Sequence record: OL362041.1
Length of the DNA stretch: 64,000 nucleotides
Source of the DNA: Escherichia phage vB_Eco_OMNI12
Strand: one strand, 5' to 3'
In this document: positions 41,341-45,759 of the stretch, one piece after another
Layout of the letters: every line of letters begins with the position of its first letter
How positions within the stretch are numbered: position 1 is the first letter of the stretch
Notes under the pieces: model-generated
Databases searched by the model: none
What the model was told of the DNA's origin: nothing
The model's input: the letters and a program-made list of their open reading frames with translations, nothing else
Translations under genes and position numbers: made by a program

Positions 41341-41623
41341 GAGAAATAATTCCTTGGTAAGCCCAATAAGGAGGATTAACAGAATCCTCGCCAGAGTTTT
41401 CTTCAGGAAAATAAACCTGGATAACAAATCCAGATGCATCAAAGGTAAAATAAACCGTAGGCAGTTCACCTAACAATTCGGCACGAGCATTAATTTCTTC
41501 GAGATCTCGTTCACGTCCAGCCCAAAAACTAGGATTTAGACTACATTCGTAAAAATAATAGTCATTACCGAACATATCAAAACCCTTCCAACTCTCTACC
41601 ACATACCGCTCAAAACTAATCAT
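41312..41623 (-). CDS. Hypothetical protein (103 aa)
   Basis: ORF. Confidence 0.4.
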   Translation of the reverse strand: MISFERYVVESWKGFDMFGNDYYFYECSLNPSFWAGRERDLEEINARAELLGELPTVYFTFDASGFVIQVYFPEENSGEDSVNPPYWAYQGIISRGTKLELKE

Positions 41624-41625
41624 AA

Positions 41626-41841
41626 TTAAGCCTTTTTATCAAGAACAGAATTCAGCTTGTTAGTAATTTTATCCAGACGCTCATTGAACTCGCTAGAAGA
41701 TAAACCCTTTTCTGGAGAAATCAAACTAATCACGAAAAATATAGCAATAAAAGGAATAAGGAAAATAGCTCCAACTGCCATAAACAGAAAGAATGTTACA
41801 GTTGTAAGAAAATCAGCTAAACCTTTACGAAATTTATACAT
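41626..41841 (-). CDS. Small membrane protein (71 aa)
   Basis: Long hydrophobic segment. Confidence 0.45.
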   Translation of the reverse strand: MYKFRKGLADFLTTVTFFLFMAVGAIFLIPFIAIFFVISLISPEKGLSSSEFNERLDKITNKLNSVLDKKA

Positions 41842-41956
41842 ATTTTACCCTTAATTGATTAACCAAGCATTGATAAGCACTAAACTATACTGTGAATAAA
41901 ATTCTGGACCAAAATGAAAAATCATATCATTTATAGTATCCATAATGTAATTCAAT

Positions 41957-42427
41957 TTAATCATGTTTCCACACCCCATCGGTATTTGACCAAAGCCGCT
42001 GATTATCTGATCCTCTCCACAGCTTTTTGGTCGGAAGATTTTTCTCATACTTCCCATCAATAATAACATCAACATATTTAAGCATTTCTAGTTGTTTAAT
42101 ATCTTCAAACTTATATCCTGTCCACAACCAAATGCTTTTATTTGGATAAAGATTTTTTACTGTTTGAACAATGCAATGAATAACATCTCGATTATCAGGA
42201 TAGAGAGGGTCTCCTCCAGTTATAGTTAATCCTTCTATATAATCATTATTCAAACATTCAATTAATTGTTCTAGTGTTTCACCAGTGAATGGAATACCAT
42301 TTCTAGCATTCCATGTTGATTTATTATAACACCCTTCGCATTTATGCAAACAACCTGTAACGAAAAGAACGGTCCTGCATCCAGGACCATTCACAAAGCA
42401 GCACGGGTATATTCTGTCATAATTCAT
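41957..42427 (-). CDS. nrdG: Anaerobic ribonucleotide reductase activating protein NrdG (radical SAM)
   Basis: 156 aa; CxxxCxxC-type cluster GCLHKCEGCYN. Confidence 0.9.
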   Translation of the reverse strand: MNYDRIYPCCFVNGPGCRTVLFVTGCLHKCEGCYNKSTWNARNGIPFTGETLEQLIECLNNDYIEGLTITGGDPLYPDNRDVIHCIVQTVKNLYPNKSIWLWTGYKFEDIKQLEMLKYVDVIIDGKYEKNLPTKKLWRGSDNQRLWSNTDGVWKHD

Positions 42428-43256
42428 TTATATATTTCCAATTATAGCCTTCAACACTTTTACGTTCGCCATTTAAACATTTTAAAATATTTCCTTTGCT
42501 AGAAATATTAAAATATTTTGCTGCGTCTGGTATATAATTAAATGTTTTTAAAAGAACACCATCTTTATATGCGCCAAATAAATTAAGAGTATATTTTTCT
42601 CGAAGACGCTGATGTTTCCTTTTCATAACCTCAGGATTTGCATACGCCAACCTCAATGAATTTCTATGTTTTTCTTTTACTTCAGGTTTTTGCATTGCTA
42701 ACTTAGTTAGCCTGGAAATTTTATTTCTAACTTCGTCAGTTTTCATTGCATTTGACAAATTTAATAAAGTTTTATTTCTAACTTCAGGTTTTTGCATTGC
42801 TAACTTAGTTAGTTCTCTATGTCTTTTTCTAAAATCGTCATCCTTCCATATATTTTTCGATAATTTTGACATAGAGCGGTGAAATAATTCCTTTTCACTG
42901 GAATACAATTTAAAAATTTCATCCAATTCATCCGCATTAAATCTATCGGTATTCGAGTTTATCATTCTATGAAAGGCATAACACATTTTACTATTGCTTG
43001 TTTTAGCTAAATAGTAATGAGCTAACGCATGGTCATAATATGACAAATTAACAATATTCCATTTATCTGTTTTATATTCAGGAAATATAGATTTGGGAAG
43101 CACGTGATGTGCTTCCGTTTTTCCTTTTATTTTAGGATTATTATAATTTTTTGTTATCAAATCAACATATGACAATAGTAAATCATTATTTTCTTCAAAT
43201 ATTAAAGCTAATTTATCATTCACAAAATCGCAAGGATAAAATCTATCATAATTCAT
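42417..43256 (-). CDS. MobD-like HNH homing endonuclease (279 aa)
   Basis: HNH motif KTEAHHVLPKSIFPEY...WNIVNLS...H; between nrdD and nrdG as T4 mobD. Confidence 0.75.
   Translation of the reverse strand: MNYDRFYPCDFVNDKLALIFEENNDLLLSYVDLITKNYNNPKIKGKTEAHHVLPKSIFPEYKTDKWNIVNLSYYDHALAHYYLAKTSNSKMCYAFHRMINSNTDRFNADELDEIFKLYSSEKELFHRSMSKLSKNIWKDDDFRKRHRELTKLAMQKPEVRNKTLLNLSNAMKTDEVRNKISRLTKLAMQKPEVKEKHRNSLRLAYANPEVMKRKHQRLREKYTLNLFGAYKDGVLLKTFNYIPDAAKYFNISSKGNILKCLNGERKSVEGYNWKYINEL
42417..43256 (-). mobile_element. Free-standing homing endonuclease gene between nrdD and nrdG
   Basis: HNH ORF; its first 13 codons near-duplicate those of nrdG. Confidence 0.55.
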
Positions 43257-45070
43257 TGGTGTTTAACCCTATGCATGATTTCTTTATTTTTACCGAGATT
43301 AAATCCGCGTTCGTTCGGATTTCCCAAATAACCACATGTTCTTCTTATTGTATTCATCTTTTTAGGATCAGTTTCTCCACAAATAGAACAAACAAATCCG
43401 TTTTCAGTAGGAGTCATTTCATGGGTACTTCCACACGTAAAACATTTATCTACCGGCATGTTAACACCAAAATAATCTAAATGTTGTGCAGCATAATCCC
43501 ATACGGCCTCAAGACCTTTCAAGTTATTTTTCATATCAGGAAGTTCAACATAAGAAATGTGACCACCTGTCGCAATGAAATGATATGGCGCTTCACGAGA
43601 AATCTTTTCAAACGGAGTAATATTTTCTTCTACTGAGACATGGAAACTGTTAGTGTACCAGCCTTTATCGGTAACATCTTTTACGCTTCCATATTTTTCT
43701 GTATCGAGTTTACAGAAGCGATAACAAAGGTTTTCAGCAGGAGTCGAATATAAACTAAAAGCAAATCCGGTTCTTTCAGTCCACTGTTTAAGATGAGCAT
43801 TCATTTTAGTTAAAATTTCTCGTCCAATATCACGACCGACAAGAATATTCAATTCGTGAATACCAATGTATCCTAAAGACACTGAACTTCTACCGTTTTT
43901 AAATAACTCAATTATATCGTCATCAGGTTTAAGACGAACCCCAAATGCACCTTCTTGGTAAAGAATAGGAGCAACAGTAGCTTTAACTCCTTTTAAGGAA
44001 CTAATTCTACACATCAAAGCTTCAAAACATAAATCCATTCGTTCATTGAACAATTCAACAAATTTCTGTTCATTGAACTGTGTTCCAATATAAGAATCTA
44101 ACGCGATGCGAGGAAGATTCAGTGTTACAACACCAAGATTATTACGTCCATCAAGAATTTCATTACCAGTCGAATCTTTCCATACGCCCAAGAAACTACG
44201 GCAACCCATTGGAGAAACAGGAACAGATGAACCAGTGATAGCTTTATTGTTCTTAGCTGAAATAATATCAGGATACATCCTTTTGCTTGCACACTCTAGA
44301 GCAAGCTGCTTAATATCATAGTTCGGATCGTCTTTATAAAGATTAACACCTTCTTCAACGAACATAACAAGCTTAGGGAAAATAGGAGTTATTCCATCAC
44401 GACCAAGACCTTTAATACGATTTTTCAGAATTGCTTTCTGAATCATTCGTTCAGTCCAGTCAGTTCCTGTACCAAATGTAATTGTTACAAAAGGTGTTTG
44501 TCCGTTTGAACTAAAGAGAGTATTTACTTCATATTCATAAGCTTGGAATGCATCGTATACATCTTTTTCTGTTTTAGATTGAGCATAATTCAACACATCA
44601 GCGATTTGCCATTTTTCTGCATCCTCAATATGTTTTGCATAGGTGCGTTTAACATAAGGAGAAAGTACTTTATCGACATTAGCAAATGTAGTTCCGCCAT
44701 ATTGGTGAGAAGCAACCTGTGCAGTAATTTGTGCCATAATTGCAGTAGCAACGCCAATTGATTTAGGAGTTTCAATCTGTGCATTACCAAGCTTAAATCC
44801 GTTCTCAAGCATTCCTTTTAAATCTACTAAACAGCAATTAGTAAATGGAAGAGCAGGGGAATAATCAATATCATGGAAATGAATAATTCCGCTTTCATGC
44901 GCTTTCATAATAAAAGACGGGACCATATTTTTGGCAATGTGTTTAGACACAATACCAGCCATAAGGTCCCGTTGAGTTGGAAAAACACGAGAATCTTTAT
45001 TAGCATTCTCGTTTAAAAGGTCTTTATTAGTTTTATGAATCAATCCTTCAATTTCTTTTTCAATTGTCAT
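43253..45070 (-). CDS. nrdD: Anaerobic ribonucleotide reductase NrdD (glycyl radical enzyme), intronless
   Basis: Continuous 605-aa ORF; C-terminal glycyl radical motif RRTCGYLG; Cys-rich zinc site. Confidence 0.95.
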   Translation of the reverse strand: MTIEKEIEGLIHKTNKDLLNENANKDSRVFPTQRDLMAGIVSKHIAKNMVPSFIMKAHESGIIHFHDIDYSPALPFTNCCLVDLKGMLENGFKLGNAQIETPKSIGVATAIMAQITAQVASHQYGGTTFANVDKVLSPYVKRTYAKHIEDAEKWQIADVLNYAQSKTEKDVYDAFQAYEYEVNTLFSSNGQTPFVTITFGTGTDWTERMIQKAILKNRIKGLGRDGITPIFPKLVMFVEEGVNLYKDDPNYDIKQLALECASKRMYPDIISAKNNKAITGSSVPVSPMGCRSFLGVWKDSTGNEILDGRNNLGVVTLNLPRIALDSYIGTQFNEQKFVELFNERMDLCFEALMCRISSLKGVKATVAPILYQEGAFGVRLKPDDDIIELFKNGRSSVSLGYIGIHELNILVGRDIGREILTKMNAHLKQWTERTGFAFSLYSTPAENLCYRFCKLDTEKYGSVKDVTDKGWYTNSFHVSVEENITPFEKISREAPYHFIATGGHISYVELPDMKNNLKGLEAVWDYAAQHLDYFGVNMPVDKCFTCGSTHEMTPTENGFVCSICGETDPKKMNTIRRTCGYLGNPNERGFNLGKNKEIMHRVKHQ

Positions 45071-45540
45071 TTTAAACTCTTTCTAAGCTGCTTCTTAAAT
45101 GAAGCTATTAACTGTGTTTTGGTGTCAGATTCATTATATTCAAATCCTCTTTGAAGCATCTCGGCCATCATTTCCTCTTTTCCTAAACGAGAAAATTCCT
45201 TTGATTTATCTCCAACAAAGTTAGGGTGAATATTATTTTGGGTGTAATCGGATTTTAAATAAGTAAGTAAATTTTCTAACCATTCAAGATAATCAACACC
45301 TTGTCCCTTTAAGCCAGAACGATTAAATTTATGCTTCATTTGACCTTCTGCGGCATTGCAGAGATTACAAAGCAATCCACGTATCTTTCCTGCTTTTGGT
45401 CCATTTAATTCATGGTCATGATCAAGATGATTAGCTTGAACATCAGGATTTAGTTCTCGTTGGCAAATTAAACATTTACCGTTTTGTGCATCATAAAATT
45501 TCTGTTTTTCTTCTTTATATAATTTGCCAGTCAATAACAT
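45067..45540 (-). CDS. 49: Endonuclease VII (Holliday junction resolvase) gp49
   Basis: 157 aa as T4 gp49; Cys-rich HNH-type zinc motif. Confidence 0.9.
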   Translation of the reverse strand: MLLTGKLYKEEKQKFYDAQNGKCLICQRELNPDVQANHLDHDHELNGPKAGKIRGLLCNLCNAAEGQMKHKFNRSGLKGQGVDYLEWLENLLTYLKSDYTQNNIHPNFVGDKSKEFSRLGKEEMMAEMLQRGFEYNESDTKTQLIASFKKQLRKSLK

Positions 45541-45546
45541 AATAAA

Positions 45547-45571
45547 ACCCTTACCTTAAATAGATAAGGGT
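45547..45571 (-). promoter_or_regulatory. Hairpin sequestering the gene 49 Shine-Dalgarno
   Basis: accctta ... taagggt inverted repeat; TAAGGGT sits about 7 nt upstream of the gene 49 ATG. Confidence 0.5.
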
Positions 45572-45582
45572 ATTTATTATTT

Positions 45583-45759
45583 TTAAGTATTGTAAAACAT
45601 TCGATGCAATCGTTTATACTGTCGAATCATCTTTTTAGTAGGACGAGAATAGGTTCCTACGCAAGTTGTCATATGAGGGTCCGTAGAATGTCCTTTAATA
45701 AAAAGTTTCCAAACCTTACCGCCATTTAACTTTTCAGTATAAACCAATTCGGTTTTCAT
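45583..45759 (-). CDS. Small ORF (about 58 aa) whose C-terminus duplicates the Pin C-terminus
   Basis: Ends ...MIRQYKRLHRMFYNT versus Pin ...KIRQYKRLHQMFYNT; lies between 45-bp direct repeats; possibly a duplication remnant rather than a functional gene. Confidence 0.3.
   Translation of the reverse strand: MKTELVYTEKLNGGKVWKLFIKGHSTDPHMTTCVGTYSRPTKKMIRQYKRLHRMFYNT
45584..45628. repeat. 45-bp direct repeat, copy 1
   Basis: taagtattgtaaaacattcgatgcaatcgtttatactgtcgaatc; about 90 percent identical to copy 2. Confidence 0.6.

Follow-up and report, generated by a model that had tools for sequence, protein, structure and literature searches.

Why should a free-standing homing endonuclease gene begin with the first codons of the gene that follows it, and which of the two copies of these codons is the original? 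We addressed this question at the nrdD/nrdG locus of Escherichia phage vB_Eco_OMNI12 (sequence record OL362041.1), using a stretch of 64,000 nucleotides (nt), hereafter the window. The source phage is T4-like (Tequatrovirus), its best matches being AndreasVesalius and PST at ~98-99% identity, and the gene order on the minus strand is gene 49 (endonuclease VII, 45067-45540), nrdD, an open reading frame (ORF) for a 279-residue endonuclease, and nrdG. The endonuclease gene lies within nrdG, in the 5' part of its coding sequence, and has not been inserted into intergenic space between the nrdD and nrdG genes. As judged from the comparisons presented below, it probably represents a cassette that has captured the native start of nrdG, supplies a re-coded replacement start, and homes without an intron at the 5' end of this gene. 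The features on which the argument rests are as follows.

43253..45070, minus strand: nrdD, large subunit of anaerobic ribonucleotide reductase, 605 residues, a single intron-less ORF whose TGA stop and the endonuclease ATG overlap in the sequence ATGA.
42417..43256, minus strand: HNH (Mob-class) free-standing homing endonuclease, 279 residues, identified by PHROG profiles and by its T4 mobC position.
41957..42427, minus strand: nrdG, radical-SAM activase of NrdD, 156 residues, intact (Pfam Fer4_12, E 4.6e-48; Radical_SAM, E 2.2e-7).
43217..43256, minus strand: upstream copy; it corresponds to the native start of nrdG, nt 1-40 (13 codons and a G), and now forms codons 1-13 of the endonuclease; 40/40 against nrdG of phage ASO78A.
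42388..42427, minus strand: downstream copy, the present nrdG start, nt 1-40 (alignment and repeat search).
42398..42416, minus strand: re-coded patch, nrdG nt 12-30, with 8 substitutions including TTT>ATA (F6I) and GAT>TGC (D10C) (sequence comparison).
42417..42427, minus strand: 11-nt overlap, ATGAATTATGA, of the endonuclease C-terminus (..NEL, stop) over nrdG codons 1-4 (from the ORFs; the same overlap occurs in T4 mobC/nrdG).

A preliminary description of this locus had reported that the endonuclease gene starts with a near-copy of the first 13 codons of nrdG, with about 33 of 41 nt matching, and re-alignment bore this out. The endonuclease begins MNYDRFYPCDFVN and NrdG begins MNYDRIYPCCFVN. 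Anchored at the two ATGs, the DNA sequences match at 31/39 positions over codons 1-13 and at 32/40 up to the point of divergence, beyond which (nt 40) they differ completely; the earlier figure is reached by counting the A that precedes each ATG. An independent repeat search returned the same 41-nt direct repeat (42388-42428 and 43217-43257, 80% identical, 33/41, spacing 829 nt), and at least 33 matches in 41 would arise by chance with a binomial p of ~3e-12. The sequences 5' of the two ATGs are indeed unrelated, matching at 15 of 41 positions, which is about chance level (per-base match probability 0.277). No further copy with three or fewer mismatches was found in the 64-kb window, nor in 100 shuffles. 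The reported overlap of the endonuclease ORF with the start of nrdG amounts to 11 nt, the endonuclease stop lying that far inside nrdG.

As references for the native copy we used ~875 phage records with an nrdD-nrdG junction, ~25 of which were read in detail, together with nrdG loci from IMG/VR, nearly all of which are endonuclease-free and served as native references only. In endonuclease-free relatives, nrdD and nrdG overlap directly as ATGA and there is no repeat; relative to one of them, ASO78A, the window differs at this junction by a single 829-bp insert bounded exactly by the two copies. The first 40 nt of the endonuclease gene are identical to the ASO78A nrdG start at 40/40 positions, synonymous sites included. 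The nrdG of the window differs from that of ASO78A (471 nt) at 12 positions, all within nt 12-56, with nt 57-471 identical. Eight of these differences fall at nt 12-30, and the other four (nt 42, 48, 55 and 56) belong to a hairpin polymorphism that is found in endonuclease-free phages too. Asp at position 10 of NrdG was present in 28/28 readable IMG/VR nrdG starts, and a search of IMG/VR for the re-coded allele found none. By these comparisons the endonuclease's copy is the native one, and it is nrdG that now starts with the diverged copy. We also considered, and rejected, concerted evolution between the copies: a link at codon 12 (GTG/GTT) seen in the window and PST is broken by TadeuszReichstein and Jbel.

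The preliminary description had offered two interpretations of the near-copy, a footprint of homing or recombination and capture of the host gene's translation-initiation region. Both hold, as two sides of one architecture: the single insert between the copies accounts for the first, and for the second the native start remains at its original position at the nrdD stop, with no other in-frame ATG in the endonuclease ORF until about codon 91.

Phages of Klebsiella show what happens when the recipient allele differs. The same endonuclease is found in phage Roth77 (85% nt and 86% amino acid identity), where the gene starts MNFDRIYPSDFVN, identical at 40/40 positions to the native nrdG start of the endonuclease-free Klebsiella-type loci L021 and L030. 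(At about nt 270, nrdG of L030, IMG/VR UViG_2974754850, seems to lack 1 nt that L021 and Roth77 have; this is due to a sequencing error, or else the gene is frameshifted.) The nrdG of Roth77 carries a patch encoding MNYDRIYPCC for 30 nt, followed by exact native Klebsiella-type sequence; within the patch the amino acids are the same as in the coliphage and synonymous codons differ. A perfect 10-nt repeat, TTTGTGAATG, is present at both edges of the Roth77 cassette. Among coliphages, the upstream copy in TB004 and Ec_MI-02 has the synonymous variants TAC, CCC and TGT, and over 48 nt this variant start shows 100% identity to the native nrdG start found in endonuclease-free phages such as Sf22, Aplg8 and GiZh, a type represented by 60 records in the band of at least 99% identity. 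The reading frame across the junction is kept in 10/10 carrier loci that were read (the window plus nine), with three different upstream alleles.

T4 mobC, which occupies the same junction, behaves likewise. A copy in Klebsiella phage Wolf_ER13 (locus L046, 901-1533) is identical to that of T4 at 620/622 nt (99.7%), with an nrdD flank only 78% identical, which indicates a very recent transfer between phage genera. Its MobC starts MNFDRIY, as does the local nrdG, and that of T4 starts MNYDRIY; the 5' end of the Wolf_ER13 nrdG is T4-type for at least 90 nt. Because donor and recipient share nothing upstream of the ATG, homology on the left-hand side could come only from the captured nrdG codons. 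In both Klebsiella-type phages a small DUF7415 gene (Pfam E 7e-13) lies between nrdD and nrdG and overlaps both (Roth77, L036, 696-929; Wolf_ER13, L046, 696-935), and the endonucleases are still found at the nrdG start although this gene parts it from nrdD.

Since the endonuclease starts with the local nrdG start in Klebsiella phages, and T4 mobC does likewise, the upstream copy is the recipient's, and it is the patch that moves along with the endonuclease. When coliphage and Klebsiella phage are compared at nt level, the endonuclease body is 84.9% identical, nrdG 67.8% and nrdD 76%, values by which the endonuclease is shown to have moved horizontally, independently of its flanking genes. Together, these comparisons establish, at the level of sequence, the boundaries of the cassette and the origin of each copy.

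We propose that the mobile unit consists of the endonuclease body (codon 14 to stop) plus a replacement nrdG start re-coded at nt 12-30. The recipient's own nrdG start would stay at the nrdD stop, fused in frame to the endonuclease, and would give it an ATG and nrdD-coupled initiation; as the Klebsiella-phage junctions show, it is also the only left-hand homology that the element needs. The nrdG gene would be re-started from the cassette-borne copy, whose ATG overlaps the endonuclease stop, and its translation would be coupled to endonuclease termination. The enzyme is predicted to recognize a long site at the 5' end of naive nrdG, extending across the nt 40/41 junction. In carrier genomes, the upstream copy would be safe by interruption, as the insertion splits the site, and the downstream copy by the re-coding of nt 12-30; both parts of this protection are needed because the upstream copy keeps native nt 12-30. 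When a cut naive allele is repaired with a carrier genome as template, the endonuclease body would be copied in together with the patch, which amounts to intron-less homing. The cassette most likely captures the nrdD-coupled initiation site of nrdG, and the re-coding of nrdG nt 12-30 most likely serves as protection against cleavage.

The protein itself matches PHROG 655 'homing endonuclease' (E 5.7e-37) and PHROG 12434 'HNH endonuclease' (E 4.7e-15), and the phage PST copy of its gene is annotated mobC. Three further features lie within the gene.

43005..43124, minus strand: HNH core, residues ~45-84, GKTEAHHVLPKS...WNIVNLSYYDHALAHYYL (motif conservation; predicted strand-strand-helix).
42441..42554, minus strand: putative DNA-binding module, a C-terminal NUMOD1 / I-HmuI-like helix-turn-helix, residues ~235-272 (Pfam PF22083, E 2.4e-4, and PF07453, E 5.8e-3, both below gathering scores).
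42669..42710 and 42771..42812 (span 42669..42812), minus strand: pair of 42-nt direct repeats, 90% identical, by which LTKLAMQKPEV is encoded twice (repeat search).

The HNH motif, EAHHVLPKS...WNIVNLSYYDHALAH, has H50, H51, N67, H76 and H80 invariant across seven homologues, and an AlphaFold model (mean predicted local distance difference test score, pLDDT, 69.8) places strand, strand and helix at residues 47-51, 68-72 and 73-84. The top Foldseek match in the PDB was I-HmuI (1u3e), a weak one (probability 0.97, E 0.26, TM score 0.2-0.3); Pfam HNH models gave no match to the protein at E<0.01, and a phmmer search of the PDB returned nothing meaningful above noise. A metagenomic variant of 242 residues (P0002) lacks exactly the 34 residues between the LTKLAMQKPEV repeats, a deletion that was presumably repeat-mediated.

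The label 'mobD-like', used in the preliminary description, did not survive comparison with other Mob proteins. The locus is the T4 mobC position, the mobD locus being nrdC.11/mobD.1, and a tblastn match to mobD (31.8% over 65% of the query, E ~9e-8) was no better than that to MobC and worse than that to a Mob paralogue of T6 type encoded elsewhere in the genome, to which the window protein is closer by sequence than to T4 MobC (36% over 233 residues). Orthology to T4 MobC was rejected as well, given that BLASTP aligns only 60 residues of the HNH core at 38% (E 1e-7). On these alignments the endonuclease of the window is a positional analogue or a distant family member of T4 MobC. Occurrence of the same N-terminus in Mob proteins away from nrdG would have spoken against a link with nrdG; in the paralogues at other loci (P0004, P0005, P0007 and P0008) the nrdG-like N-terminus is lacking and homology begins at about residue 14. 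The BLAST alignment of the T6-type paralogue begins at query residue 4, and a shared nrdG-derived start was considered for it and rejected: DEFLIKELV and DRFYPCDFVN share 3/10 positions, and the paralogue starts with a 9-residue leader of its own.

How far the re-coded patch can be read as the mark of this particular endonuclease depends on where else it occurs. The endonuclease is present at the nrdD/nrdG junction in 31 of the ~875 records, with nrdD and nrdG directly abutting in most others. The re-coded allele, which we refer to as 'CC', occurs in 106 records, nearly all of them adjoining an endonuclease gene; native-type alleles account for 654. By this distribution the 'CC' patch is clearly linked to endonucleases. 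The re-coded stretch within nrdG nt 1-40 differs by endonuclease type, covering nt 24-39 for T4, nt 9-24 for Slopekvirus KP27, whose MobC homologue starts MNYQKIY, and nt 12-30 here. The KP27 example comes from GenBank; no further nrdG-adjacent endonucleases were found in RB43/Slopekvirus-type IMG/VR contigs.

Several observations weigh against the interpretation of the patch, and of the enzyme, that we favor. The identical 'CC' patch stands beside a different endonuclease gene, that of the GIY-YIG enzyme SegH, in 71 records (T6 and 70 others), and is also found with some T4-type mobC copies (BEU50), so that it may have evolved as immunity to SegH and merely been inherited by the Mob cassette. 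It can persist without any endonuclease gene, as the endonuclease-free phages U5 and ESh24 carry it. The native flanks of the Roth77 cassette could stem from later recombination with local phages and not from the original homing event. The HNH assignment is based on the motif and the PHROG profiles, with no match to Pfam HNH models and a weak fold match to I-HmuI. Finally, even T4 MobC is listed with its activity 'not determined' and its target 'unknown' (2010 review).

The occurrence of the patch in these other settings favors an explanation in which the architecture is as we describe it, while the patch represents SegH immunity or an old donor haplotype. The Mob gene would then have entered a 'CC' background, or a place beside one, by recombination, and its product may be inactive or act on a different site. 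SegH is reportedly an active endonuclease that cuts near its own gene, and phages that combine SegH with the patch (identical as an nt 1-60 haplotype) outnumber Mob carriers 71 to 31. Set against this, the Klebsiella-phage copy retains MNYDRIYPCC with different codons, followed by native sequence beyond nt 30, which argues that the patch stayed with this endonuclease through a long divergence. Strong purifying selection on the endonuclease (ratio of nonsynonymous to synonymous substitution rates, dN/dS, 0.08 against the same copy) speaks against a dead gene. We regard this explanation as less likely than not, albeit the strongest of the competitors. As far as sequence tells, the patch may have arisen against Mob, against SegH or against both.

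Three phages illustrate the separate fates of patch and gene. In U5 (L044, AY262145, 2466-2615) and ESh24 (L045, 1141-1290) a native nrdD 3' end is joined directly to a 'CC' nrdG start. Exactly this would be left if the Mob cassette were lost precisely, by recombination in the 11-nt ATGAATTATGA repeat, but it could equally be the ancestral donor haplotype. In PD112 (L034, ~737-968 in nrdD-to-nrdG orientation) a 235-bp segH remnant, its start fused to the C-terminal helix-turn-helix by an internal deletion, lies between nrdD and a 'CC'-type nrdG; here the endonuclease gene is decaying and the immunity patch has outlasted it.

We considered it improbable that the repeat is the scar of a one-off illegitimate recombination and has no present role; in that case the upstream copy would be a relic that is not translated or has no relevance, and the endonuclease would start at an internal codon. 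In-frame TTG codons at about positions 28 and 33 could provide such a start, and the leader, predicted to be disordered (pLDDT <50 for residues 1-8), seems dispensable for the modelled fold. However, the only in-frame ATG upstream of about residue 91 is the captured one, a start at codon 28 or later would cut off conserved sequence, with paralogue homology running from about residue 14, the frame is kept at every carrier junction that was read despite three upstream alleles, and T4 mobC, an independent endonuclease gene, is built in the same way. That the shared N-terminus is a peptide functional in both proteins (in contacting NrdD, for example) or a chance resemblance, with no duplication, has the resemblance itself in its favor and nothing more, and is effectively refuted by the 40/40 DNA identity to the endonuclease-free allele at synonymous sites too, by the p of ~3e-12, by variation of the peptide with the recipient genome and by its absence from paralogues.

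The cassette that we propose can be set beside several known systems. It would count among the intron-less homing cassettes, a kind already known, and its architecture is unusually clean and generalizes to T4 mobC. T4 mobC shares with it the nrdD/nrdG locus, the ATGA overlap with the nrdD stop, PHROG 655, the 11-nt overlap with the nrdG start, a protein ending in ..WKY-x-x-EL before the stop, and a start made of nrdG codons (MNYDRIY) that follows the recipient allele. It differs in length (210 versus 279 residues), in a captured leader of 7 rather than 13 codons, in being alignable only over the HNH core (38% over 60 residues), and in its re-coded nrdG stretch (nt 24-39 versus nt 12-30). A published description of the shared MobC/NrdG N-terminus was not found in the literature searched, which did not cover Sandegren et al. 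2005, and an earlier description is possible.

That mobC and segH replace one another at nrdD/nrdG is known, segH taking the place of mobC in T6 and its relatives. SegH shares the junction and the identical 'CC' nrdG start with the Mob endonuclease, but belongs to the unrelated GIY-YIG family (matches to NUMOD3 and the I-TevI DNA-binding domain, PHROG 314) and is inserted before the nrdG ATG, using no nrdG codons and having its own ATG in a re-coded nrdD tail. This start (T6, L043, AY262137, 1440-1560; fPS-2, L033) lies at ATGCATAGG and overlaps the nrdD stop; in native nrdD an identical 9-mer occurs in frame (MHR) at a point 15 nt earlier, and SegH may have borrowed its start from nrdD as Mob did from nrdG. 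In SegH phages the last eight nrdD codons are nearly all re-coded (GKMKEMVKRVKHA versus GKNKEIMHRVKHQ). The annotation of fPS-2 misses the true start of SegH and the GIY-YIG motif.

In the mobile-ORF hybrids of fungal mitochondria (Allomyces atp6; Glomus atp6, atp9, cox2 and nad3), an in-frame endonuclease ORF is accompanied by a divergent duplicate of the gene's C-terminus, and the native duplicate matches element-free relatives (PMC3630166). The arrangement in the window fits that definition, with a native copy at 40/40, an inserted one at 32/40 and the endonuclease in frame with a host gene fragment. In the fungal hybrids, however, the 3' end is duplicated and the native fragment lies downstream, often unexpressed, whereas here, in a phage, it is the 5' end, and the native fragment is reused as the endonuclease start. 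The mobE gene of Aeromonas phage Aeh1 is reported to split nrdA while function is kept ('genes in pieces'; PMC3045599). It likewise places a Mob-class endonuclease within ribonucleotide-reductase coding sequence without destroying function; in Aeh1 two separately translated halves reassemble, whereas here only 13 codons are cut away from nrdG and the cassette brings a full replacement. Intron-encoded endonucleases such as I-TevI, I-TevII, I-TevIII and I-HmuI are likewise found within their target gene, at the recognition site or close to it, and their insertion disrupts that site, but they rely on splicing, whereas here continuity is restored by duplication and a new start codon with no intron. 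A group I intron-encoded endonuclease was rejected at this locus: the ORFs are contiguous and overlapping, and Rfam families, group I introns included, gave no match at E<=1 in 41500-45600. The T4 nrdD carries a group I intron with I-TevII, and nrdD of the window (43253-45070) is uninterrupted.

Other potential control elements were sought around the junction. Sites found in a sigma-70 promoter scan were no more frequent than in shuffles, and RNA structure hiding either start codon was rejected, fold energies being no better than those of shuffles (z = -0.04 and +1.47). One structure was identified inside the nrdG coding sequence.

42367..42392, minus strand: 11-bp hairpin plus T-run, nrdG nt 36-61, terminator-like (terminator-like score; the fPS-2 record annotates a terminator).

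Its arms are GAATGGTCCTG and CAGGACCGTTC, followed by TTTTCGTT, and the insertion junction (nrdG nt 40/41) falls in the 5' arm. The hairpin exists in two haplotypes related by a compensatory change (C42-G55 to T42-A55, and G.T to G-C), at the cost of V19T; mixed and disrupted forms occur in TB004 and Ec_MI-02, and it is not present in RB43/Slopekvirus-type nrdG. It might attenuate expression of nrdG relative to nrdD.

The T4 Mob enzymes have resisted characterization, and among them a target has been mapped for MobE only. With two copies to compare, the limits of the cassette can be placed to the nucleotide. The architecture predicts a recognition site from about nt 12 to beyond nt 40 of nrdG, as well as the changes that would confer immunity, and natural allele pairs (ASO78A or T2 type versus U5 type) make this prediction of target and immunity directly testable. 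It also explains the NrdG-like start of T4 MobC, and carries a warning for annotation and phylogeny: codons 1-13 of the endonuclease and codons 1-10 of nrdG have histories unlike those of the rest of their genes.

More broadly, a free-standing endonuclease can inhabit coding sequence without an intron, by reusing the start of its host gene and supplying a new one. A tentative extension, which we put forward as a conjecture with somewhat less than an even chance of being right, is that the HNH endonucleases at nrdG (this Mob, T4 MobC and the KP27 type) are obligately nrdG-embedded and have no initiation codon of their own, gaining at each transfer the recipient's start as both translation start and sole left homology arm. 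The re-coded stretches (nt 12-30, 24-39 and 9-24) would then be a readout of their recognition sites, and the change from Asp10 to Cys would have been imposed by competition between Mob and SegH and not by enzyme function. If this is true, capture of the recipient start would let such elements jump between phage genera with differing upstream genes.

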